From the IMG/VR virus record IMGVR_UViG_3300036859_000816, positions 32,001 through 96,000 of that record: a stretch of 64,000 nucleotides of DNA; one strand, 5' to 3'. The stretch's first letter is position 1; every line of letters starts with the position of its first letter. The stretch comes from a virus. Below the pieces are notes generated by a model. It made no database searches. It saw only the letters and a list, made by a program, of their open reading frames with translations, and was not told the DNA's origin. Positions 2 through 48,689 of the stretch are shown here, piece by piece. A program made the position numbers and the translations under genes.

Positions 2-229
2 GTTTTTAAGGCGCTGCTCACGGACTACAAACACGTCGTCTCAGCATCACTCGAGCATTTGGACGGTGTTGCAAAAAAGGAAAGCGAAAAAAAGATTGCT
101 CTGATCGACAAAGCGCTCGTGCGCATTAACGAGCTGACGCTCAGCGAAGATGCGCCTCCGGATGAGCATGAAGATGAAGAGGACGACAATGAGGACGACG
201 AGGAAGAGGACGTCGACAAATCGAACTGA
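2..229 (+). CDS. 3' end of hypothetical protein with acidic tail (truncated by window)
   Basis: Frame 2 is open from base 2 (VFKALLTDYK...DEHEDEEDDNEDDEEEDVDKSN*); its TGA overlaps the ATG at 229 (TGATG). Confidence 0.7.
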   Translation, partial: VFKALLTDYKHVVSASLEHLDGVAKKESEKKIALIDKALVRINELTLSEDAPPDEHEDEEDDNEDDEEEDVDKSN

Positions 230-2715
230 TGACTACGCCCGCCGACATTGCACGACCCGCTGATGAATCGAATGATGACGGGCAGAAGTTAAGCGGGCCC
301 TTTTCATCGACGGACCTGGCGGCAAAGAAGCGTCGAAAAACAGACCCGGAAGAGAACGCCGCTTTTCTTAGCGAACATCTCGACGCAACCCTGCCTCGCA
401 AAGATGAACAAACCGCTCGGGAAGCGGCTCCCGCCATCGTGAGTACGGGAACGGCGGAAGCGACGCCGCCAGCCGAGATCAATCGTCAGCTGCGCGACCA
501 ACCGACCGTCGATGCCGTCGTCGATCTAGATGAAGAAAAGCTCGACAAGTTCTGTAAAAATTTTCAGGATCTGTTTAAGAAACAAATCGACGGCGAGAAC
601 TTCTACATCGATGTCATTCGTCGCAAGCCGGCGAGCTGGCAAGGTATTACGACTAAGGGTTCGCAGCATCGCATCGAACGACCGATGACCATCGAGGAGT
701 TTGCACAGCTCTACGGTGGCGAGGAGTACGTGCTGCAGGTCTATGGCAAGTCGAAGAGGGGACCCGTACTCAAAGACGTGAACGGTAAGCTCATCGGCAT
801 TGCGCGCACGACTCCGGTTATCGTCAACATACCGGGAAGAGACCCAAATCCGTATACTGCCGTCGGCTACGCCGAACATGGAAGCGATGACATGACCAAT
901 CCAAGCATTCCACTTGTAACGGCTCCCATGGCTCGCGTACGCGACTCAGAGCTCAAACACGAAGAGGTCATGGACGAACGGCGCGATCAGCGTGAGCAGC
1001 GCGCCGACGAGCGTCGCCGCCGAGAACTCGACAAGGTACGCGAAGAAGAGCGCGGCAAGATGGACGTCAGTCTGCAAATCCTCATGAAGCAGATGGACGA
1101 AAAGAGTGCGCAGATCGCGACCCTTACAAAGAAGCTCGAAGACCGCGGTGAGGATCGCAAAGCGGACATGCAGGGCATCGCGGCGGTGATTTCGGCGACG
1201 AGACCTGCGCACGATCCGCAGGAATCCAAGACACTCCAAGAGCTACAGAACAAACTGAGCGAGCAGCATAAAGACGAGATCAAGACGCTCATGGCGTCGC
1301 ATGCCACCGAGCTCAAAGCGGTGCAGGATCTACAAGTCAAGCTCAGTGAACAGCACACTGCCGAGATTACTCGGTTGCGCGAAGGGTACGCGGCCGAGTT
1401 GACGCGGCTACGCGAGGAACAGGGCAAAGAGCTCAGGCGCGTCGATGAATTGCGCGCGGAACAACGCAAGGACTCGGACAAGGCAATCAAAGAATCCGAA
1501 GAACGGATGGCGCAGCGAATCAAGGATGTCGAAGAGCGCGCGCGTCAGGACGTCGCCGCTGCGCGAGCGGACGTCGCCGACGCCAAGTCCGATGGCGATC
1601 GACGAGTCAACGACATAAAGGATCGCTTCGAGGATCGTATCAAGGATCTGGACCGCAATCACAAGCGCGAGATCGATGGCAGTCGAGAGCGGTGGGAGTT
1701 GCAGCTCTCCAACGAAAAGACTGCGCTCGAGACGCGCCTCGCTATCAAGGACCAAGAAATCCTACGTCTACAGGAAGAGCTCGAAACCGCTCGCGAGGAA
1801 GCGAAGAAGCCACTGACCGACCGCATCAATGAAGTCGCCGCCGCCGCCGAGGCGCTCGGGTACGGCAAGAACGAACCGGAGCAAAAAGACTGGAAACAGA
1901 TGGCGCTCGAGGTCGGCGGCAACCTCGTGTCGAATCTACCGGAGCTGCTACGCTCCGCTGGCGATACGATTACAAAAATGCGCCAGCAGCCGACGCCGCA
2001 ACAGATGGTTGCTTACACACAAGCTCAACAAGCGCAGATGCAGACGGCAGCCGGCGCACGTGCCGTGCAGTTGGCCGGCACGGCCTTGCCGCCACCGTTG
2101 CGAGGACCCGCAGGCGCATTGGCGGGGCCGCGTGGCGGCTTCGCTACCGAAGACGGACCGGAATTCGAAGGCGCGCGCGGGATGCGGTCGCCGATCATGC
2201 CGGCAGATGCGAGCGTGCCGACCATGGGCCGCGTACCAGCACCCCAGCCGCCTACGGCACCGGCGCCGCGGGCGGCGATGCCCTACGCAATGCAACAGCA
2301 CGTCCAGCCCATGCAGCCGGCGCGCATGCCAGTTCAACCGATGCAACCGGTCCAACCGGCACCGGTCGCCGCGGCCGTCCCTCAACCGGCAGAGCCGCCC
2401 GCTCCGACCGAAGCGCCAGCCAGCGAACCCGGACAACCCGGCACACTGCGATTCACCAATGAACAAGTGCTCGAATTTCGTCCACTCTTCGAAGCCGCTC
2501 TCAAGCAGGGCGCATCGCCTACGGAAGTCGCTGACTATCTCGTGCGCACGTACAATCGTGAACGCGTCGCCAAGGTTCTGCCTTTCATCGAACCGGGTTA
2601 TTTGCTGAACGTACTGCAGGAGAACGGCTTCGATCGTAGCCCGCTCTGTCGCCGCGACGGCCAGAAGTTTCTGCGGGAAACGTACGCGGTACTCCAACAG
2701 CGCTGCGCAGGATAG
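229..2715 (+). CDS. Large coiled-coil protein with Pro/Gln-rich linker and small C-terminal helical domain
   Basis: 828-aa ORF; E/K/R/Q-rich heptad-like region ~aa 240-530; Pro/Ala/Gln-rich region; coupled start. Confidence 0.85.
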   Translation: MTTPADIARPADESNDDGQKLSGPFSSTDLAAKKRRKTDPEENAAFLSEHLDATLPRKDEQTAREAAPAIVSTGTAEATPPAEINRQLRDQPTVDAVVDLDEEKLDKFCKNFQDLFKKQIDGENFYIDVIRRKPASWQGITTKGSQHRIERPMTIEEFAQLYGGEEYVLQVYGKSKRGPVLKDVNGKLIGIARTTPVIVNIPGRDPNPYTAVGYAEHGSDDMTNPSIPLVTAPMARVRDSELKHEEVMDERRDQREQRADERRRRELDKVREEERGKMDVSLQILMKQMDEKSAQIATLTKKLEDRGEDRKADMQGIAAVISATRPAHDPQESKTLQELQNKLSEQHKDEIKTLMASHATELKAVQDLQVKLSEQHTAEITRLREGYAAELTRLREEQGKELRRVDELRAEQRKDSDKAIKESEERMAQRIKDVEERARQDVAAARADVADAKSDGDRRVNDIKDRFEDRIKDLDRNHKREIDGSRERWELQLSNEKTALETRLAIKDQEILRLQEELETAREEAKKPLTDRINEVAAAAEALGYGKNEPEQKDWKQMALEVGGNLVSNLPELLRSAGDTITKMRQQPTPQQMVAYTQAQQAQMQTAAGARAVQLAGTALPPPLRGPAGALAGPRGGFATEDGPEFEGARGMRSPIMPADASVPTMGRVPAPQPPTAPAPRAAMPYAMQQHVQPMQPARMPVQPMQPVQPAPVAAAVPQPAEPPAPTEAPASEPGQPGTLRFTNEQVLEFRPLFEAALKQGASPTEVADYLVRTYNRERVAKVLPFIEPGYLLNVLQENGFDRSPLCRRDGQKFLRETYAVLQQRCAG

Positions 2716-5415: not shown

Positions 5416-5961
5416 GTGGTCGCCATTGCCGCACAACCCATCGCCGATGCGCCGCCATTCGTGCGGTCACGCTTCGGAGGACCGGTTCATACGATTCAGG
5501 TCATGCAGCAGATGTGTGTGGGCCCACGTGGCGAGCGGTCGATGTTGCTGCATTCGCTCCGCAACTACATCGTGCGAGAGCTCCAGCCCAAGGATTACCT
5601 GAGCGAGATTTTAGCCGTCCGGAACTTCGCCAGTGAGCACATTCGCTACTCCAACGATCCGCTGACCGAAGAGCAAGTGCAGGATCCCGAACGCATTACC
5701 GAACAGATCATCAAGTTCGGCAAAGCAGCAGGGGACTGCGACGACCTGGCTCTATGGATTGCAGCAATCTCTCGTCAGCTCGGTCGTGAGGCGCAATTCG
5801 TGACCGTCGGCTTCGAAGCGCCCGGACGCTACAGTCACGTCTTTACGCGCGTAAAGGAACCCAAGAGCGGACAATGGATCGTCTGCGATCCAGTAGCGGG
5901 TTCGAATGAAGCGGCGATGCTGCGCCGTGTGAAGACCTTTCATGTTTGGGATATTCGCTAA
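5416..5961 (+). CDS. Transglutaminase-like (papain-fold) cysteine enzyme, candidate virion maturation protease
   Basis: Cys-His-Asp triad pattern GDCDD...YSHVF...WIVCDP. Confidence 0.85.
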   Translation: MVAIAAQPIADAPPFVRSRFGGPVHTIQVMQQMCVGPRGERSMLLHSLRNYIVRELQPKDYLSEILAVRNFASEHIRYSNDPLTEEQVQDPERITEQIIKFGKAAGDCDDLALWIAAISRQLGREAQFVTVGFEAPGRYSHVFTRVKEPKSGQWIVCDPVAGSNEAAMLRRVKTFHVWDIR

Positions 5962-16410: not shown

Positions 16411-16487
16411 TGCCCTACCGCATCGTCCTAAGTGGCTCTCCGGACCGCTAGGCGCTCCCTGCAGTGACGCAGGATTGCGACCTGAAG

Positions 16488-18365
16488 ATGGCCCGACCGC
16501 TTGGCAAAACCTACCCGATTCGACCGCGTGATGTACGGACGTACGACTATACGGCGCCGCCTGGACGGCTGCGCGCGAATCCGGCGGTTACCACGATTGC
16601 TGCCATCAACGGTCCCGGTGCGTACCGAGGTCGACGCAGCGCACGCGCATCGATGGCGGGATTGAGCTCAAAGCATCGGGTCAACCGTGCCCGCACGCAG
16701 TTGAGCGCAGCACAACGAGACGCTTTTGCTCGAAAAGTCAGTGCAGCCCGTTCGGCTGCAACACCGAATCATCGGAGGAACGAAATGCAAACGAATGCAC
16801 GCAGGCGCCGTCGGCGCCGTTATGACGACAATCGTCGCCGCCGAGCGCGCCACCCGAGCGCCGCTACTACGACTACTCGTCGCCGTCGAACGCGCCGAGC
16901 AGCGAGCCCGGTCCGCCGTCGTCGCCGAGTGCGTCGAGCAGCGAGCCCGATTCGCCGTCGTAGAACCCGTCGTACCCGTCGGCATGTGCGGAATGCGTTC
17001 GTGGAAAATCGCCGTCGTCGCCGAACGCGTAAGAGCCCGGTTCGCCGTCGCCGAGTGCGTCGAGCAGCGAGCCCGGTCCGCCGTCGCCGTCGAACGCGCC
17101 GAGCAGCGAGCCCGGTCCGCCGTCGCCGTCGAACGCGCCGAGCAGCGAGCCCGGTCCGCCGTCGTCGCCGAACGCGCCACCTGACTGCCAATGTTCGCCG
17201 TCGCCGTCGTGGAACGCGGCGTTATGATGACAATGCTCGTCGCCGTCGCCGTCGAACGCGGCATCTGAGTGCCAACGTTCGCCGTCGCCGTCGTGGAACG
17301 CGGCGTTATGATGACAATGCTCGTCGCCGTCGCCGTCGAACGCGGCATCTGAGTGCCAACGTTCGCCGTCGCCGTCGTCACGTGCGCCGCGCGAGCCCGG
17401 TCCGCCGTCGCCGTCGCCGCTATAGCACCAACGCTCACCGTCGCCGTCACTACCGTCGCAACCAAGGCCTGTTCATGGAGGTCTTGCAGACCGGCGGTCT
17501 GATCACGGCGGGCATCGTCGGCCAGAAGCTACTCGCGGGCATCATCCGCAGTCAGATTCTGGATCGCGTGTTTCCGGCTGCGGCAGCTCCGGCTGCCGCT
17601 CCAGCGGCCGGATTGGGCGGCATCGAAGAGTACAACCCACTCATTGCCGGCGCACTGGCAGTAGCAGGCGGCATGTTCGTTACGAACATGGTTGTCAAAG
17701 ATACCAAAACGAAGACGCTCATCATGGGCGGCTTCGGCGCTGGGTTCATTCACAGCGCGTTGATCTTCCTGCTCGACAAGCTCAATCAGCCCGCCATTGC
17801 CGACATGTTGGCTGGTGAAGGTACCGCGGCTCGCATCTCTGCGATGTATGGCCTCGGCGCTGGAGTCAGCTTGCAACCGCATTACGCGCCCATGGGCGAG
17901 TACTTCAGTGAAGGCATGAGCGGTCTCGGAGCAGCGCCGGCACTGTATCAAGCAGCAGCTGGGATGGGTGCATACGGAGCGAATCCGGACATCTATCAGG
18001 CGGCCGCCGGATACGGCGATACGGATACGAGCTACGGCTTCGGTAACCACGTTAGCCCCTCTAGCGATCTCGAGCGTGAGCTCACCATCGCCGAAGCGGC
18101 GGCGGGTGTCGGTGCTGTGCAATCGTACGAAGCTTCGGCCGGAACCGGTGAGTACTTCTCGGCAACGGGTGAGTACTTTTCGGAACCGGGTGTGAGTGGC
18201 CTCGGTGCCATTCAGACGACGCCGGCAGCTGATACCTGGGTTCCGGGTATGGCGAATCCGCAGCTCTGGGCAGGCGTCAAGAGCGTCGGTGAGCCGCAGT
18301 CGGAGCACATGATGCTGCCCGCAGGCGTGCTCGAAACTGCAGGAGGCGCGGGCATCTTCGGGTAA
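16488..18365 (+). CDS. Protamine-like Arg-repeat core protein precursor with TM segments and Gly-rich acidic C-terminus
   Basis: RRAASPVRRRR and YDDNARRRRRR repeats; hydrophobic helices; four GLG and three GEYFS motifs; start 16488 (or GTG 16464). Confidence 0.85.
   Translation: MARPLGKTYPIRPRDVRTYDYTAPPGRLRANPAVTTIAAINGPGAYRGRRSARASMAGLSSKHRVNRARTQLSAAQRDAFARKVSAARSAATPNHRRNEMQTNARRRRRRRYDDNRRRRARHPSAATTTTRRRRTRRAASPVRRRRRVRRAASPIRRRRTRRTRRHVRNAFVENRRRRRTRKSPVRRRRVRRAASPVRRRRRTRRAASPVRRRRRTRRAASPVRRRRRTRHLTANVRRRRRGTRRYDDNARRRRRRTRHLSANVRRRRRGTRRYDDNARRRRRRTRHLSANVRRRRRHVRRASPVRRRRRRYSTNAHRRRHYRRNQGLFMEVLQTGGLITAGIVGQKLLAGIIRSQILDRVFPAAAAPAAAPAAGLGGIEEYNPLIAGALAVAGGMFVTNMVVKDTKTKTLIMGGFGAGFIHSALIFLLDKLNQPAIADMLAGEGTAARISAMYGLGAGVSLQPHYAPMGEYFSEGMSGLGAAPALYQAAAGMGAYGANPDIYQAAAGYGDTDTSYGFGNHVSPSSDLERELTIAEAAAGVGAVQSYEASAGTGEYFSATGEYFSEPGVSGLGAIQTTPAADTWVPGMANPQLWAGVKSVGEPQSEHMMLPAGVLETAGGAGIFG
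16896..17380 (+). repeat. Coding tandem repeats (39-nt and 84-nt units)
   Basis: 39-nt units at 16896, 16935, 17061, 17100, 17139; 84-nt units at 17178, 17262, partial at 17346. Confidence 0.9.
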
Positions 18366-18492: not shown

Positions 18493-19248
18493 ATGGCTAA
18501 AGTTGTTACGATTCGCGAGCGCGTTCATCAGCCGTTCTGGGACACACTCGTACGCACCGCCGGTCTCGTACCCGGCACCCTCAACGATACCACCACTCTG
18601 TTCACTTCGAACGGTTCCCGTTCGGAGGCAACAACCAACCTGCAGAACGGCAGCACGTTGCCGTCGGATCAGAGTCACGTTGTGCTCGCCTTGCGCGTGT
18701 TCACGTGGTTCCGCAATCCGATTCTGCGCATTGCGGGTCAACCGGCGGGCGCGGTCGCGTTCAACGGCGACTTTAGCGAATTGGCGCCATGGGTGACGCC
18801 TGGTAGTCCGGCCTTCGGTCAGGCTCCGGGTCAAATCCAGGACGTTTACCGTCTGCACTGGCAGGCGGAAGAGCAGCTGCACTGGGACTTCGGTACCGGT
18901 CTCAAGGACTCGATCTTCAACATGCCCACCTGGTACTTCCCGGCGGGCGGTGGAATTTCGGGCGACATGGGCGGCGCGACCGACCTGATCCACTGGCAAA
19001 ACAGTGGCTGGGATGGTCACTCCGGCATCCTGCGCCTCGCGCGCGCAATCCTGCTCCCTCCGCGTCAGAACATCATCACGCGAGCGAAAATCTTCCCGCT
19101 CGAGGCCAACGGCCAAGCGATGACGTTCGGCACGACCCAGGGTTCGCGCAACATGTTGTCGCTCAAAGACAACATCAACACCGTCGACGCGATTCAGAAG
19201 GTCATTACCTTCACCTTTGACGGATTGTTCAGTCGCGACGTCCAGTAG
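18493..19248 (+). CDS. Putative major capsid protein (single jelly-roll candidate)
   Basis: RBS CAGGAG; 251 aa, beta-strand-like alternation, no TM; directly follows the core-protein gene; fold is inferred. Confidence 0.6.
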   Translation: MAKVVTIRERVHQPFWDTLVRTAGLVPGTLNDTTTLFTSNGSRSEATTNLQNGSTLPSDQSHVVLALRVFTWFRNPILRIAGQPAGAVAFNGDFSELAPWVTPGSPAFGQAPGQIQDVYRLHWQAEEQLHWDFGTGLKDSIFNMPTWYFPAGGGISGDMGGATDLIHWQNSGWDGHSGILRLARAILLPPRQNIITRAKIFPLEANGQAMTFGTTQGSRNMLSLKDNINTVDAIQKVITFTFDGLFSRDVQ

Positions 19249-19304
19249 CGCCCCCGAATAAATGGTGGTGCACGGAATTATGTAGGTCGGCTATCCTTTC
19301 CGTT

Positions 19305-20690
19305 GTGAGTAATTGCAACGGAAAGGATGGGTCGATTGGCAGAAAATCAGCACGGGCATTTGAAGTTGGGGCGCGTATAGGGGAGTGGGAAGTCGTAGCA
19401 GCGATCGTTCGCGACGCTACGGACGCACAGAAGAGGAATGGACAGAAGCAGGAACAGTGCTCCGTAGTGCGTTGTCGCTGCGGTCGAGAGCGCACACTAC
19501 CAAATGGATACTTGCGCGCTGGACGCAGTCTAGGTTGCGGTTGCCGTCGTGCTGAGGGCTGGAAGAATAGGAGCCGATCTCACGGCAAGAGCCGCACACC
19601 ATTGTATCGACTTTGGGCGTCTGTTAAGCACAGGCTGATCAGAGATCGCACATACGAAGGCATTCGAATGTACGCGCCTTGGCAGCACGACTTCGAGACG
19701 TTCGAAGCATTCATTCTGAGTCTTGGCCCGAAACCCACGCCGCAACACACGCTAGATCGAATCGATCCACGCGGAGATTACGTACCCGAAAATCTGCGGT
19801 GGGCTGACAAGGCTATGCAAGCCATCAATCGTCGCCCATTTGCTACTATTCAACAGCTGAGTCATAGGTCTGGACGGACGCTAATCCATGGCCACACCGG
19901 TAGTGAATTGCACAAACATTGGTGCCACATCAAGTACCGCATCAAGAACGAAAAATCATACTCCGGAATTCGAATGTACGAGCCATGGTTGAAGGATTTT
20001 TCAGCTTTTAATGCGTACATCGAGAGCCTTGGCCCGAAACCTACACCGCAGCATTCTCTGGACCGCATCGATCCAACAGGTGACTACGCACCAGGAAATC
20101 TGCGGTGGGCGGACAAGACGACGCAGTCCGAAAATCGCCGCAATAACAAGAGTCGGCAACTCCAGACCAAGAGCATCGTCAGTGTCGGCCAGAAGTACGA
20201 CATGCTGACTGTACTGGAGCTCGTCATCTTAGAAAAGCACGGCGTCACTTGGTACGGTGCGAAGGTGCAGTGCGAGTGCGGTACGATCAAGACCGTTTAC
20301 CAGAAGCAACTGCTATCGGCACGGACGAAGTCGTGCGGATGCTTCAAAAACACGAACCTGCGGTTGGGTCACAAGGCGCTCGAAAAGCCGATTACCGTCG
20401 ATGGTGAAATGTTGAGTTTGCGCGCTTGGTCGCGCCGTCAAGGAATTTCTCCGCAAGTCATCTGGACTCGCATCCACAGGCTGGGTTGGGATCCGGCAGA
20501 AGCCGTGAAGCGCCCGCTGCGAGAGGTTAAGCAGATCGAAGTCAAGGGCGAAAAACTGAACGCAGAAGAATGGTCGGCGCGGCATGGCGTGCCGGCGCAT
20601 GTGATCGTGAAGCGGCTGGAGCGGTTCGGTTGGGATCCAGAACGAGCCGTCACGCAGCCGGTTCGTGGCTGGCGCCGAAAGGCCGCGTAG
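19305..20690 (+). CDS. Free-standing HNH-type homing endonuclease with duplicated nuclease module
   Basis: Two copies of GPKPTPQH[TS]LDRIDPxGDYxPxNLRWA; CRCG...SLGCGC and CECG...KSCGC Zn motifs; two GWDPxxAV repeats. Confidence 0.85.
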   Translation: MSNCNGKDGSIGRKSARAFEVGARIGEWEVVAAIVRDATDAQKRNGQKQEQCSVVRCRCGRERTLPNGYLRAGRSLGCGCRRAEGWKNRSRSHGKSRTPLYRLWASVKHRLIRDRTYEGIRMYAPWQHDFETFEAFILSLGPKPTPQHTLDRIDPRGDYVPENLRWADKAMQAINRRPFATIQQLSHRSGRTLIHGHTGSELHKHWCHIKYRIKNEKSYSGIRMYEPWLKDFSAFNAYIESLGPKPTPQHSLDRIDPTGDYAPGNLRWADKTTQSENRRNNKSRQLQTKSIVSVGQKYDMLTVLELVILEKHGVTWYGAKVQCECGTIKTVYQKQLLSARTKSCGCFKNTNLRLGHKALEKPITVDGEMLSLRAWSRRQGISPQVIWTRIHRLGWDPAEAVKRPLREVKQIEVKGEKLNAEEWSARHGVPAHVIVKRLERFGWDPERAVTQPVRGWRRKAA

Positions 20691-20708
20691 GCCCATAAAT
20701 TCACGGCG

Positions 20709-20763
20709 AATCCGAAACGTGCGGATTTTTTGACGGCATCCGCCGCGGGGTGACAGACTGTCA
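20709..20763 (+). promoter_or_regulatory. Terminator-like hairpin fused to promoter TTGACG-N18-CAGACT with palindrome TGACAG-A-CTGTCA
   Basis: AATCCG/CGGATT stem plus T-run 20709-20731; -35 at 20730, -10 at 20754; palindrome 20751-20763. Confidence 0.5.
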
Positions 20764-20838
20764 GCGCACGGAAAAAATCGTCGATTCCGATACGGCGCTC
20801 CACTGGACTGCCGATACTCCTCAGGAGACACGGACAAC

Positions 20839-21807
20839 ATGCAGCAAATCGATCTCGGTCAACTAGTCCAAGGCGTTGCCTCGGCGAACGCGAACGCGCA
20901 ACGCGCACTCAAGGCCGTCAACGAATTCTCGCAGGCAGCAGGTCCCGATCTCAAGGCGGCTCGTGGCGAAATTCGCCGTCTCATTGAGGACACAGCGGTC
21001 CTCAAGGAGGCGATGACCAAGCTCGAAGCGCAGCGCACGGGCAACCCGAAAATCCAGTACGTCGAAAATATCCCGGGTCGACGCATTCCATTTGACGCGC
21101 TCGTGGACATTCCCATCGGCGCGGGCATAACGAGCACGCAGCAAGGCACGATCACGATCTCGCAGGAAGGTCCGTTCGTGGCCGTGGCGCGCTTCGTGAC
21201 GTTGCAGTCGCAGTTCCAGTTTCAGTTCGTTGATCCCGTGACACTGGCGAAGATCAGCTTCATGGGGCGCAGCTTTGGTCGCTACCGTCCAGTGCACTCG
21301 GCATGGGATCTGTCCGATGGTCGACCCGTCGATCAAGTGTCGATGGTCGTCGGCTTTCCTGGCTCGGGTGCGCCGCACGTCATCAGCCCGAGCAATGAAT
21401 CGCCGTGGCGCAGTATGGAAGGCGACTTCCGCATTCTCTTCGTCGAAGCCGGCTCGAGCTATCCGCGCAGCAACATTGAAGTGCCGAGTCCGTTTTGGAC
21501 GACGCAGATCAATTCGCCCTTTCAGCTCGGAGCTCTGGACGTTTTTGAACGCGGCGAAGTGCTGACGTTCAAGGTGCTGCCGACGCACGAGAACAATCCG
21601 CCGTTCGGTAACATCTTCGGCTTTGGCGCACCCAACCCGAATTTCCCGTTCGTCACGAGCGGCTGGGACGCCGTCGAAGGCATCAGCGACCCAAACCGAC
21701 TGGATGCCGGAAATACCGATCCAATTACGCGGCTACCCAACGCGATCATGACCATCGGCTTCCACGGCTATCGCATTATTCAGCCGCCGGGCGGTGGTCC
21801 GTACTGA
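20839..21807 (+). CDS. Putative second capsid protein (N-terminal coiled coil plus jelly-roll candidate)
   Basis: RBS CAGGAG; beta-rich; ends IMTIGFHGYR, compare ITFTFDGLF of 18493. Confidence 0.55.
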   Translation: MQQIDLGQLVQGVASANANAQRALKAVNEFSQAAGPDLKAARGEIRRLIEDTAVLKEAMTKLEAQRTGNPKIQYVENIPGRRIPFDALVDIPIGAGITSTQQGTITISQEGPFVAVARFVTLQSQFQFQFVDPVTLAKISFMGRSFGRYRPVHSAWDLSDGRPVDQVSMVVGFPGSGAPHVISPSNESPWRSMEGDFRILFVEAGSSYPRSNIEVPSPFWTTQINSPFQLGALDVFERGEVLTFKVLPTHENNPPFGNIFGFGAPNPNFPFVTSGWDAVEGISDPNRLDAGNTDPITRLPNAIMTIGFHGYRIIQPPGGGPY

Positions 21808-22616
21808 TGGCTGCCGCTGAGATTCAGACTTGGCTGCGTCAGCAGGGTATACCGGCGCAACCGGTCGCTAGCGTACTCGATCGATTTGCGAAGGTGCCGA
21901 GCGAATGCGGATCGCTACGTGTGCAATTTTCCGGTAGTTGGTTGCTGCAACTCGCAAACCATCCGACCACAACTCCATTCGAGCACAGCTTTCGCAAGCT
22001 ACCGCAGGATGGCATCTTCGCTGCCACACCCGAGCGGCCGAATATCATCGAGCTCGGATCGTTTACTGTGCCCGCAAGCATGGTGTTGCTCGTTCTGGAT
22101 TGGCGGTTTGATATTTATCGACCGAATGGCGCCATCGTCGGCGACGTCGTACCCATCGAAGAACGACGGCTCGCTCTGCAAATCGGTTGGGACGTGGTGT
22201 TCAGCGCGAAGCGGACCGCCAACCTCGAATACGAAATCACACCCGCGCCACCTACGACCGGCGGTCTGTCCGCATATAAGGCGAATCCCAACGCTGGCAT
22301 CATTCCGGACAACTTTGGCATCGCGCTGCCGCCCGCGTCACAGGTCGAATTTGATCGCATACGCTTCCTGCAGACGCAGGAGCCGAGCGGCTTAGGCGCA
22401 TCAATGCTCCCACAGCGACATCGGCGGGACGTCCAACCGCAAATGCCGTTTACGTACATTCTCGAGGAAAATCAGACCATTCAGTTTTTGAACATTGCCT
22501 TTCAGCCCGTGCCCATCCCGCTCGCCTTCTTTGAGGTGGAATTCAGCGGGCTGCTTTTGGGCTCCAATGCGTTCAAAGAGTTCATCAAGGGCTCGAATCC
22601 TTGCGTGGGCTACTGA
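21807..22616 (+). CDS. Putative third capsid/penton protein (jelly-roll candidate)
   Basis: TGATG coupling; beta-rich; ends FEVEFSGLL. Confidence 0.5.
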   Translation: MAAAEIQTWLRQQGIPAQPVASVLDRFAKVPSECGSLRVQFSGSWLLQLANHPTTTPFEHSFRKLPQDGIFAATPERPNIIELGSFTVPASMVLLVLDWRFDIYRPNGAIVGDVVPIEERRLALQIGWDVVFSAKRTANLEYEITPAPPTTGGLSAYKANPNAGIIPDNFGIALPPASQVEFDRIRFLQTQEPSGLGASMLPQRHRRDVQPQMPFTYILEENQTIQFLNIAFQPVPIPLAFFEVEFSGLLLGSNAFKEFIKGSNPCVGY

Positions 22617-22753: not shown

Positions 22754-23551
22754 ATGACCGCACTCGGCGCTTACTACGCGACCAAAACACTGGAACCGAT
22801 TGCCGGCTTGGGTCACCTGGGTCAAGCGCCCGAGCAGACCATGTCGGCGCTGGCCGCCAATACGATGCAGAGCTTTCTGCAGTCGATTCAGCCGCTCGGT
22901 ATCTACATTCCCTGGGCCGACCAGGTAGGCGAACACGACTGGAAGGTCGTTTCACCCGATCAGCGGTACGCCCTATATCCCGTAACGGCGGACATCTTGT
23001 CGTCCGCGGAACGGGCATCGTTCGGGCAACCCGTCGGCTTCGTTACGGTGTTGTCGGCGCATCAGCTCACTCTCGCTGATGCGGCACGTCTATTTGATGG
23101 CACGCCGTTCGAGTACTTCTCGACGGATGCATCGTACCGTGATGACGATCACAAATCCGCGCCAACGATTTACTTCGTCTACTGGGGTCGGTTGCGCGAC
23201 ACGGCGCAGACCGTCGGCAACTACAAGACGCTCGAGAGCCAAGCCAAAGCGATGGGTGTTCAGCTCGCGTTTCCCGTGTACGTCAACGTACCGGCCGACG
23301 CGACGCAACCCGCGATCGATTTCAATCTTGCGCTCAAAGCTCAACAGCTCGCGCCGACGACCGCGGCCATGCCAACGGCGATTGCGCCAACGCCAGTCGC
23401 ACCTACGGCGATAGCGCCCGCGGCTGCCGTAACGCAGAAATCATCCGGCATCCCTTCGTTGCTGTTGATTCTGGCCGTTGGCGGAGTGGCCGCTTACGCC
23501 GGCTACCGCATCATGCACGGCGGTCGTCGCAGAGCCGCCACTGTGTCGTAA
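22754..23551 (+). CDS. Putative virion protein with C-terminal TM
   Basis: IAGLGHLGQ near the N-terminus; PTAIAP repeats; TM plus RRR. Confidence 0.8.
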   Translation: MTALGAYYATKTLEPIAGLGHLGQAPEQTMSALAANTMQSFLQSIQPLGIYIPWADQVGEHDWKVVSPDQRYALYPVTADILSSAERASFGQPVGFVTVLSAHQLTLADAARLFDGTPFEYFSTDASYRDDDHKSAPTIYFVYWGRLRDTAQTVGNYKTLESQAKAMGVQLAFPVYVNVPADATQPAIDFNLALKAQQLAPTTAAMPTAIAPTPVAPTAIAPAAAVTQKSSGIPSLLLILAVGGVAAYAGYRIMHGGRRRAATVS

Positions 23552-26819: not shown

Positions 26820-27662
26820 TTGGACAATTGCGGCGCGTTGGCGGCAAAATCTGTGGTTGTGACTGATCGACTAGCTGCTACCGCTCTCCGCATACTCGCT
26901 CCGCGAGCCGTCGTGTTTGGATTCGGCAATCCGGACAGCTTGCAGAATGTCATCACGACCGACCTGCCGAACGGCGCCGAGTGCTTCGTTATCGAGGACC
27001 GGACGCTGTATCGGCTGAACAAAACGCTGACGGTTACACCGCCCGGCGGAATTCAACCGGTCGGTGGTCCGGGACGCTGGGTTCCCGATTTCGGTCCAAC
27101 CGGCCCAACGGGACCCACCGGAACGAGCGGAAGTACGGGACCGACCGGAGTCGGCACGACGGGTGCGACCGGTACAAGCGGCGCAGCAACCTTCGGACGC
27201 GCCTCGATGCAATTCGATCCGAGTGTGTTCGGAACCGATGGTGTGTTCGACGTTGCCGCACAAAATAATTGGATAGGAGCCGATAGCACGCAGGTTGCCT
27301 ACGTTGTTCAAACGACACTGAGTGCCGATTGGTCACTGAATGGAACTACTGGCGTGCTGACGTACTCCGGCGTGGATGCATTCTACGCGTTCGTCGGATC
27401 CGTCAATCTGAACTCTCAGGATGGCGTTGCGCGTAATATCGAGGTCGCGTTTACCAAAAATGGTGCATTCATCGGTTCGCCAACCGCTATCTTGAATGCT
27501 ACCGGCGGCTTCACCAATGCGCTCAACTTCATGCCGTATAATCCCACTGCGATGTTCGCCGTATCCGCGACCGATACGATTCAAATGATCGCGCGTAACG
27601 TCGATGCGAACGCAAACCTCGAATACAACCGCCTGAGCGCCATTGGCTGGCGCGTCGGTTAA
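26820..27662 (+). CDS. Collagen-like spike/fibre protein
   Basis: GPT/GxT triplet repeats followed by a beta-rich head; true start probably GTG 26853 or 26859. Confidence 0.75.
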   Translation: MDNCGALAAKSVVVTDRLAATALRILAPRAVVFGFGNPDSLQNVITTDLPNGAECFVIEDRTLYRLNKTLTVTPPGGIQPVGGPGRWVPDFGPTGPTGPTGTSGSTGPTGVGTTGATGTSGAATFGRASMQFDPSVFGTDGVFDVAAQNNWIGADSTQVAYVVQTTLSADWSLNGTTGVLTYSGVDAFYAFVGSVNLNSQDGVARNIEVAFTKNGAFIGSPTAILNATGGFTNALNFMPYNPTAMFAVSATDTIQMIARNVDANANLEYNRLSAIGWRVG

Positions 27663-47377: not shown

Positions 47378-48358
47378 TCATGCAGCTAGAAACATCGACG
47401 AGGATTCGTTGGATTCAACGTGCACGTAGTCACTCGTCGTCGTCAGACTCGCGTGGCCGAGTGTGTGCTGAACTAGATGCGCTGGTGCTCCTCGCCGCAA
47501 TGCGTGGCTCGCGTGCGCATGACGCAGCCAGTGCGGTGATGGCCGGTGTTGCAGATGCGCCGCTGTTGCCGCCGCGCACACGATATTCCAGCCGTCAGAT
47601 TGATGCAGCTGCCGGCCGCGCACGCTCTCGAAGACGATCGACGACAGCCGGGTCTTCTGCAACAGCTCGAAGTCCTTGATCAAACTGATCGGCAACGGAA
47701 CGTGCCGCGTCTTGCCGCCCTTGCCGTGCAAGGTCACGCGCAATCGATCCGTTTCCATGTGCAGCTCCGACCACTTCATCGCGAGCGCTTCAGAGATGCG
47801 AGCGCCCGAGAGATACAGGAACCGCAGCAACGTGCGGTCGCGTCCGGGAGCGGCGGCTTGAATCAGCGCGTAAACCTCGTCCTGGCTCAGGATCCGCTCA
47901 GCGAGCTGATTCGGTCGCCGAGGCGGCTTGACAGCGGCGCCGACATTGAACACGAGGTACCCAGTCTCGTGGGCAAATGACAACAGGCTCTTGACCGCAG
48001 AGATGCGCCGCGCATGCGAGGATACGGCGCCGTGGTCCCGCAGGTGCCGCTGGAAGGCCGTCAGGTGCGCCACTTTGACGTCCCGTAGCGTCGTCGGCCG
48101 CGCAGGCAGCTCATCGCTCGGCCGGTCCGGCAAGGCCGCCAGAAAGGCGCGGAACAGCTCCAGGTCGCCGCGGTACGCCCGCTGCGTTTGCACGCTGTCA
48201 TACCGGTCGAGCCACAGGATGATGAGCTCGGCGTCGGAGCCGGCTCCGGAGTAGTCCGGACGCTCGAAGACCTCGGTTGACGGCGGTGGCGCGCGGCGCA
48301 AGCCGAACGCGTCGAGCATACCAAGGACTTCGTTAATGGGTTGTCGCGACTCCGGCAT
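47378..48358 (-). CDS. Tyrosine recombinase/integrase (XerC/D-like)
   Basis: SGARISEA (R), GKGGKTR (K), HWLRH, LGH, terminal Y; N-terminal core-binding domain. Confidence 0.92.
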   Translation of the reverse strand: MPESRQPINEVLGMLDAFGLRRAPPPSTEVFERPDYSGAGSDAELIILWLDRYDSVQTQRAYRGDLELFRAFLAALPDRPSDELPARPTTLRDVKVAHLTAFQRHLRDHGAVSSHARRISAVKSLLSFAHETGYLVFNVGAAVKPPRRPNQLAERILSQDEVYALIQAAAPGRDRTLLRFLYLSGARISEALAMKWSELHMETDRLRVTLHGKGGKTRHVPLPISLIKDFELLQKTRLSSIVFESVRGRQLHQSDGWNIVCAAATAAHLQHRPSPHWLRHAHASHALRRGAPAHLVQHTLGHASLTTTSDYVHVESNESSSMFLAA

Positions 48359-48359
48359 G

Positions 48360-48689
48360 TTACTGCAACCGTCCGCGCTGCTGTTCACGGTACCGGACCA
48401 TGGCTTCATCGAAAGCTTCCGGATTCTGCAGATACGCGATGCCGCGCCAGTCTTGCGCAAGGTCTTGCCATTTCTTGCACTGCTCTTCCCAGAACTGGGC
48501 ACTTTTTCGCCACGTGCGTTCGGTGTCCCAGCGATGAAGCGCTGCTGCAGCGCAGAAGCCTGCTGCCAAACCGGAGGCGCTCGCCGTTAGAACGGAATGA
48601 TACCAGACGGCATTCCATATGAGGCACGCCAGGTTCGTCACGGCCAAAGCAATGTCTAACCACATCAACTTCCGGAAGGGATCCTTCAC
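48360..48689 (-). CDS. Small membrane protein
   Basis: Two hydrophobic helices then a charged tail; RBS AAGGAGG. Confidence 0.55.
   Translation of the reverse strand: MKDPFRKLMWLDIALAVTNLACLIWNAVWYHSVLTASASGLAAGFCAAAALHRWDTERTWRKSAQFWEEQCKKWQDLAQDWRGIAYLQNPEAFDEAMVRYREQQRGRLQ

Follow-up and report, generated by a model that had tools for sequence, protein, structure and literature searches.

Large double-stranded DNA (dsDNA) viruses of prokaryotes are assumed to be tailed, with HK97-type capsids that are filled by a packaging motor, and, to our knowledge, every prokaryotic virus characterised so far with a jelly-roll capsid has a small genome. Can a large virus of this kind be built on a jelly-roll shell? 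The question is raised by a 64,000-nucleotide stretch of viral DNA (the window; bases 32001–96000 of the 131,132-bp IMG/VR virus record IMGVR_UViG_3300036859_000816), which carries on its plus strand three neighbouring open reading frames (ORFs), here called P1, P2 and P3. On balance, we think it probable that these three conserved genes encode the shell in an undescribed lineage of bacterial viruses that are large (about 130–180 kb), tailless and probably endowed with an internal membrane. What carries this reading is the conservation and synteny of the three genes, the folds predicted for P1 and P3, and searches that detected neither the genes of tailed phages nor an FtsK-type ATPase.

The trio is found well beyond this one record. 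Database searches returned 658 homologues of P1, 719 of P2 and 28 of P3; the best 120 of the 658 are at least 70% identical to P1, the best 120 of the 719 are 56–96% identical to P2, and those of P3 are 36–91% identical. With a P1 profile, 171 clusters at 50% identity were found among 1.84 billion representatives (36 of them with E ≤ 1e-30), and on present counts (these clusters and 30 IMG/VR contigs) the family is widespread. P1 had no tblastn match in 50,697 phage records. In the 30 IMG/VR loci, the recurrent gene order is an Arg-rich protein, P1, P2, P3 and a membrane-anchored 265-aa protein. P1 and P2 are adjacent in all 30 (one of them locus-truncated), with P2 down to 22–26% identity. 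P3 follows P2 by tblastn in 21 of the loci, a homologue of the Arg-rich protein stands directly 5′ of P1 in 21, and the 265-aa protein has a homologue after P3 in 15. A distant clade, 32–36% identical in P1 and 22–26% in P2, has a P3 profile hidden Markov model match after P2 in five of the six loci inspected; in the remaining one the contig stops 216 nt beyond P2. In the window itself, the start codon of P3 overlaps the stop codon of P2 (ATGA). Identity within the main clade is 54–80% for P1, against 35–64% for P2 and 27–42% for P3, and the GC content at third codon positions (GC3) of P1 is the joint highest among 155 ORFs; such high conservation and GC3 would be typical of a major structural protein. 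Scans for promoters, terminators and hairpins around the three genes gave nothing above shuffled sequences, and a search for RNA sequencing runs listed none.

Which genes do these viruses lack? Hallmark genes were sought in five records spanning 131–182 kb, that is, the present one and four relatives, three of which are rated 100% complete, including two (179,401 and 135,429 bp) with direct terminal repeats. The Pfam families Terminase_6N, TerL_ATPase, Terminase_3, Phage_portal, Phage_capsid and FtsK_SpoIIIE (PF05065, PF04860, PF03237, PF03354 and PF04466 for the tailed-phage set, PF01580 for FtsK) each gave no match in any of the five, with control genomes positive (12 of 14 for PF01580). No head, portal or terminase gene appeared in single-ORF Pfam or PHROG scans of about 50 larger ORFs, nor in a PHROG scan of 123 further ORFs among the 25 of 71 matched families listed (E ≤ 1.2e-13). 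Classical Walker A motifs are confined to two proteins, a DnaB-like helicase and a methyltransferase, in the latter near its end. A packaging ATPase was not found by the Walker A pattern, by PF01580 or by homology to gp40 of the tailless Salisaeta membrane phage SSIP-1 (the latter two in all five records), though a very divergent ATPase is possible; gp40 is the predicted packaging ATPase of SSIP-1 in a passage of PMC4124505.

What folds are predicted? A preliminary description of the locus, made from the sequence, had placed the three ORFs correctly and had taken all of them for beta-rich capsid candidates, naming structure prediction as a check; for P1 and P3, AlphaFold does predict eight-stranded jelly-roll-type beta-sandwiches. 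P3 is the better modelled of the two (predicted local distance difference test, pLDDT, 73.0 for P3, with 74 residues at 90 or above, and 61.9 for P1, with a predicted template modelling score of 0.62). Its eight core strands lie between residues 55 and 252, with a low-confidence insertion at about 133–216. The top Foldseek rows for P3 are SPV1 (E 6.1e-3, probability 0.97) and then nine chains of P23-77 VP16, and a second structure comparison scored SPV1 chain 6oj0_Z at 7.5, HCIV-1 at 6.8–7.2, STIV at 6.5–7.1 and vaccinia D13 at 7.0, followed by SH1 at 6.6, a VP17 entry at 6.2 and VP16 at 5.9–6.0. The best match of P3, a vertex protein of sphaerolipoviruses, was verified to be a penton protein. 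The P1 model has two disordered loops and strands at residues 15–22, 33–36, 62–74, 129–134, 139–145, 184–188, 195–200 and 235–248. With this model, Foldseek gave nothing at E ≤ 0.001, also against BFVD; the best rows, all above that threshold, were capsid proteins of iridovirus, SPV1 and PRD1, and the second comparison scored TasA at 7.5, a KP1 baseplate protein at 7.1 and SPV1 6oj0_A at 7.0. The matches of P1 to capsid proteins are thus weak and tied with non-capsid sandwiches: the model indicates a jelly-roll-type sandwich, and its assignment to the capsid leans on context more than on fold matches. P2 is rich in helix-formers over residues 1–72 (61%), and the remainder has 21% Pro/Gly and 33% beta-formers. 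No Pfam or PHROG family matched P1, P2 or P3, and four profiles (A1, A2 and A3 for P1, P2 and P3, and A8, a broad P1 profile) found no match among the PDB sequences at E up to 1 or 10. For neither P2 nor P3 does the ESM Atlas have a structure, and a likeness of P3 to the PM2 coat protein (nearest named Atlas clusters, PF18628/PF25513) was discarded as chance, with scores of only 0.75–0.76 and a P3 model that is a single barrel.

Are the three proteins related to each other? The preliminary description had called them paralogous on the strength of three motifs shared in the same order. All nine quoted strings are present in that order (P1 55–69, 186–197 and 238–244; P2 106–120, 234–245 and 304–310; P3 87–101, 217–228 and 242–248), but they do not rise above chance: in ungapped BLOSUM62 comparison the nine motif pairs score between −7 and 18, and for every motif and protein pair, 300 of 300 shuffles contained an equally long segment that scored better. 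Pairwise BLASTP reached a best E of 0.37. Pairwise hhalign, which that description had named as a check, gave probabilities of 0.2–2.7% with family alignments that included IMG/VR-enriched ones, and global hhalign among the three families gave nothing significant. Paralogy is therefore unproven, and a shared fold, predicted for P1 and P3, is the most that can be said. One weak point favours the earlier view. The best local hhalign of the broad P1 profile with the P3 profile (probability 0.55%, E 0.1) pairs the first motif (P1 55–74 with P3 87–106) and then P1 127–139 with P3 124–136, in register with strands that AlphaFold predicts independently for both proteins (62–74 and 129–134 in P1; 92–106 and 126–132 in P3). 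The same description had seen no transmembrane anchors, judged here by a Kyte-Doolittle mean of at least 1.6 over a 19-residue window. This holds for P1 and P2; P3 has one hydrophobic window (79–98, 1.68), which is modelled as two beta strands rather than a helix (block-mean pLDDT about 88–95). Within the P1 family, many relatives are about 180–230 aa long and lack the disordered loop at 80–115 (proteins P0291–P0416, alignment A8), and the core carries the motifs RERxHQP..D, TN....LPSDQ, P.GGG and RLA.PI..P.RQ.F, with DG...RDVQ at the C-terminus.

Could the locus encode a capsid of the Halopanivirales type, as the preliminary description had proposed? Two of the proteins would then form homo- and heterodimers in pseudo-hexameric capsomers, the third would be the penton, and an undetected ATPase would pump in the DNA. 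The structural neighbours of P3 include the capsid proteins of HHIV-2, HCIV-1, SH1 and P23-77, the three conserved genes are adjacent with P2 and P3 translationally coupled by their overlap, and two types of major capsid protein (MCP) are described, in passages of PMC6356626 and PMC4958249, for SSIP-1, which may be a distant relative in culture. The idea of a penton also fits P3. Against this stand the FtsK-HerA-type and gp40-like ATPases missing from all five records, with no spare Walker A ORF, and the finding that neither sequences nor profiles connect the locus with an MCP of known structure. P2, which is read from its sequence, separates P1 from P3, and the genomes of 131–179 kb compare with 16–30 kb in the abstracts of the Halopanivirales profiles of the ICTV (the international virus taxonomy committee), 4–8 times the size of any member of the order. 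We regard this as improbable. The earlier observation is thus confirmed in part, and its interpretation supported in part.

A little less probable still are extremely divergent tailed phages, in which P1 and P3 would be accessory proteins with a jelly-roll fold (for decoration or cementing, in the baseplate or fibres, or for receptor binding) and the HK97 capsid, portal and terminase would be unrecognisable by sequence. The six hallmark families are missing from all five records with positive controls, and each ORF of at least 400 aa is either annotated as something unrelated or unsuitable in composition. An accessory protein is seldom the gene with the highest conservation and the strongest codon bias in a genome of 131 kb, and membrane-anchored proteins predominate in the block around the trio. 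Membership of Caudoviricetes is not supported, since the HK97-fold capsid, portal and large terminase were found in none of the five records, divergent versions being possible. That P1 and P3 belong to a non-icosahedral or enveloped particle (as matrix, spike or fibre) or to a vesicle-forming non-viral element is the least likely of the three alternatives, given that the best matches of P3 are vertex or capsid proteins of icosahedral membrane viruses, that IMG/VR calls the lineage viral and finds terminal repeats, and that the locus shares a transglutaminase-like protein with the icosahedral SSIP-1.

Several points weigh against the shell-trio reading itself. The present record, which is linear, is 85% complete by CheckV, and the direct terminal repeats of the relatives are also expected from headful or terminase packaging. 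Neighbour clusters in the Atlas carry mostly Uroviricota labels. AlphaFold models were made for P1 and P3, and P2 was read from its composition. The hallmark negative rests on six Pfam families and the PHROG scans, so that very divergent versions could be missed, and the control genomes did not include a far-diverged tailed phage. The lineage is known here from genes alone, with particle, lipid, protein and host unobserved.

How might such a shell work? From the genes we infer a capsid role, a division of labour, a membrane and a mode of packaging, drawing the mechanism by analogy with SPV1 and the sphaerolipoviruses. P1 would be the MCP, a single jelly-roll that tiles the facets. P3 would probably be another single jelly-roll, either closing the vertices or acting as an additional subunit of the shell; a place at the vertices is suggested by its likeness, which is greatest to the penton (five-fold vertex) protein of sphaerolipoviruses. 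P2 could be an obligatory partner, either a second capsomer subunit or a linker that faces the membrane. Assembly of the shell would take place on a membrane that holds the many anchored proteins encoded around the trio, and these proteins would organise this inner membrane. The Arg-rich 633-aa protein would condense the genome, and the DNA would be taken in while the shell forms, as is the case for SPV1, instead of being pumped into a head made beforehand; a condensation-type enclosure is proposed because no packaging ATPase was detected.

The block around P1–P3 (Table 1) holds membrane-anchored, peptidoglycan-binding and collagen-like fibre proteins. The 633-aa protein directly upstream of P1 is a candidate DNA-condensing core or membrane protein, and the transglutaminase-like protein, which stands in the same plus-strand gene block, could be a maturation protease. 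Further neighbours have windows that resemble membrane helices (dn499 at 477–499, an 80-aa ORF at 43–69 and up562 at 194–212), and two others, of 216 and 213 aa, lie below the hydrophobicity cut-off (1.46 and 1.47). The spacer between P1 and P2 is an insertion hot spot across relatives, where the cargo includes a TnpB-like protein (Cas12f1-like TNB domain, E 4e-15), a LAGLIDADG homing endonuclease and PAPS-reductase/DUF3440 proteins. In the window it holds an HNH endonuclease gene, which appears to be a selfish insertion outside the shell module, because it has no homologue in the 30 related loci and because one metagenome-assembled genome (MAG) has P1 and P2 homologues with consecutive locus tags. 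Some relatives have a small PG_binding_1 protein between P2 and P3. Two collagen-like proteins, followed by a Laminin_G_3 lectin-like protein, are all candidate spikes. Directly upstream of the structural block lies a protein of 828 aa, whose middle is a long charged coiled coil and which also has a Pro/Gln-rich region. Outside the window, the same record encodes a 466-aa protein whose terminal motif suggests a zinc metalloprotease, and a TnpB/Cas12-like nuclease.

Table 1. Positions of the trio, its spacer genes and other features (window positions unless a record or locus is named; handles beginning with L name loci with their own numbering)
Feature	Position	Strand	Description
P1	18493-19248	+	251 aa; candidate major capsid protein, single jelly-roll-like fold
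HNH endonuclease	19305-20690	+	PHROG 3377, E 2.4e-55; in P1–P2 spacer
P2	20839-21807	+	322 aa; helix-prone 1–72, then conserved Pro/Gly- and beta-former-rich 73–322
P3	21807-22616	+	269 aa; jelly-roll core about 52–257; candidate vertex (penton) or second shell protein
P1–P2 spacer inserts in relatives	L021:11115-13442; L025:2242-3912; L022:12107-13324; L025:3909-5123		
PG_binding_1 protein in relatives	L001:12044-12667; L002:12529-13272		between P2 and P3; E 8e-12 and 8e-11
633-aa protein	16464-18365	+	Arg-rich repeats, two hydrophobic windows (392–437); directly upstream of P1
265-aa protein	22754-23551	+	C-terminal membrane anchor, hydrophobic window 230–254; downstream of P3
Transglutaminase-like protein	5416-5961	+	cysteine-protease fold; Pfam Transglut_core, E 8.8e-8
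828-aa protein	229-2715		no family match
Collagen-like protein	26820-27662		PHROG tail-fibre families, E 6e-6
Collagen-like protein	L034:10019-11854		611 aa; Pfam Collagen, E 1.5e-59
Xer-like tyrosine recombinase	47378-48502	-	Phage_integrase, E 1.7e-32; SAM-like N domain
TnpB/Cas12-like nuclease	record 100876-102999 (L033:6876-8999)	-	707 aa; Cas12f1-like TNB domain, E 6e-6
466-aa protein	record 129652-131052 (L034:17652-19052)	-	no family match; ends in HExxH-type motif

The record as a whole, from a lineage that IMG/VR classes as viral, encodes YqaJ, RecT, a beta clamp, a DnaG-like primase, DnaB and a RuvC-like protein, MT-A70 and other methylases, MazG, ThyX-like, ParB-like and Xer-like integrase proteins and glycosyltransferases, together with collagen-like, peptidoglycan-binding and M15 peptidase proteins. 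The Xer-like tyrosine recombinase and the several ParB-like PHROG matches in the same genome suggest temperate or plasmid-like maintenance. Which host do these viruses infect? P1 relatives were found on 10 contigs, all from MAGs, in a search of one genome per species over 185,579 species. The MAGs are labelled Pirellulales (two), Planctomycetota, Phycisphaeraceae, Pseudomonadales, Pseudomonadota, Gemmatimonadota, Deltaproteobacteria, Acidobacteriota and Methanomicrobiales, so that Planctomycetota lineages make up four of the ten labels and one is an archaeon. Three of these contigs, of 48–123 kb, are probably whole or partial viral genomes. A host assignment from the labels was rejected, as they are mutually inconsistent and the contigs are read as binned viral DNA.

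What would follow if the shell-trio reading is true? A widespread, 130–180-kb, tailless jelly-roll lineage without a packaging ATPase would break the rule that jelly-roll viruses of prokaryotes are small and large ones tailed, and condensation-driven encapsidation would scale to large genomes. P1 lends itself as a hallmark gene for recognising these viruses, which are labelled Uroviricota by current pipelines. No description of large tailless jelly-roll viruses of bacteria was found in the literature, article supplements lying outside the search. New here are the penton identity of the best match of P3, the chance level of the shared motifs, the presence of P3 in the distant clade and the links of the transglutaminase-like protein and of P1 to SSIP-1. 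The lineage would also provide a bacterial branch for the SPV1/Helvetiavirae capsid lineage that is discussed in a section of PMC8812541.

How, finally, does the locus compare with known systems? Kinship with double jelly-roll (DJR) MCP viruses (Bamfordvirae, with PM2 P2 as an example) is not supported by the P1 and P3 models, each of which has one set of about eight core strands; DJR proteins (D13, PBCV-1 and SGIV) align through one barrel only, and prokaryotic DJR viruses are put at under 20 kbp in a passage of PMC8812541. The analogy with SPV1 (Portogloboviridae, PDB 6oj0) draws on its ICTV profile (PMC8459092); viruses of this type have single jelly-roll hexamer and penton proteins, DNA condensed by a nucleocapsid protein and no packaging ATPase. 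Here, no packaging ATPase was detected, and an Arg-rich protein, which may bind DNA, lies upstream of P1 in the 21 loci mentioned above. In SPV1, the genome measures 20 kb and the host is a hyperthermophilic archaeon, compared with genomes of 131–179 kb here. The present genomes, unlike that of SPV1, encode peptidoglycan-binding, M15 peptidase and bacterial-type replication proteins and have a third conserved protein, P2, between the two jelly-roll proteins, and no sequence similarity was seen between the profiles and the SPV1 sequences in the PDB. Membership of Portogloboviridae, with circular genomes of about 20 kb in hyperthermophilic Sulfolobales, was rejected on the 131–182-kb genomes and their peptidoglycan-binding and M15 genes. 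Halopanivirales (HHIV-2, HCIV-1 and SH1, PDB 6h82, 6h9c and 6qt9; P23-77 VP16/VP17, 3zn4, 3zn5 and 3zn6) package their DNA with an FtsK-HerA ATPase, of which no match was found in the five records here. Their capsomers are VP7–VP4 or VP16–VP17 heterodimers, and neither pair has detectable sequence kinship with the P1–P3 profiles. At best, then, the locus works like the SPV1 or Halopanivirales type of shell; it is a member of neither group, because it has no detected ATPase, no sequence kinship, a genome 4–9 times larger and what is taken to be a bacterial host.

The closest cultured virus may be SSIP-1, which shares with the present lineage a bacterial host and a genome larger than those of other membrane phages. 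Its virion protein gp34 is homologous to the transglutaminase-like protein (BLASTP E 3e-10, phmmer E 1.1e-6), and both match Pfam Transglut_core. For P1, the best SSIP-1 matches of the broad profile are the adjacent virion proteins gp46 and gp45; hhalign of the P1 profile with gp46 covers 157 collinear columns (E 0.008–0.014, probability 3–5%), and a phmmer search with gp46 returned members of the P1 family as all of its first 29 matches (best E 0.002). The link between P1 and gp46 is a lead only, not significant after 30 comparisons. The P2 and P3 profiles found no counterpart in SSIP-1, whose genome is three to four times smaller and whose gp40 has no homologue in the five records. A bolder proposal, to which we give somewhat less than an even chance, is that these viruses, plentiful in soil and sediment, form a realm-level lineage of 130–180 kb with a very large icosahedral single jelly-roll shell over an internal membrane, DNA condensed in a protamine-like manner and no motor, as bacterial counterparts of SPV1 with SSIP-1 as the sole cultured distant relative; just as tentatively, they would then be the largest jelly-roll-capsid viruses of prokaryotes. 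SSIP-1 is described in a table of PMC6260650 as having a triangulation number (T) of 49, a diameter of about 100 nm and a circular dsDNA genome of 44 kb, and scaling from these values suggests, for the present viruses, a T of around 100 and particles about 140 nm across.

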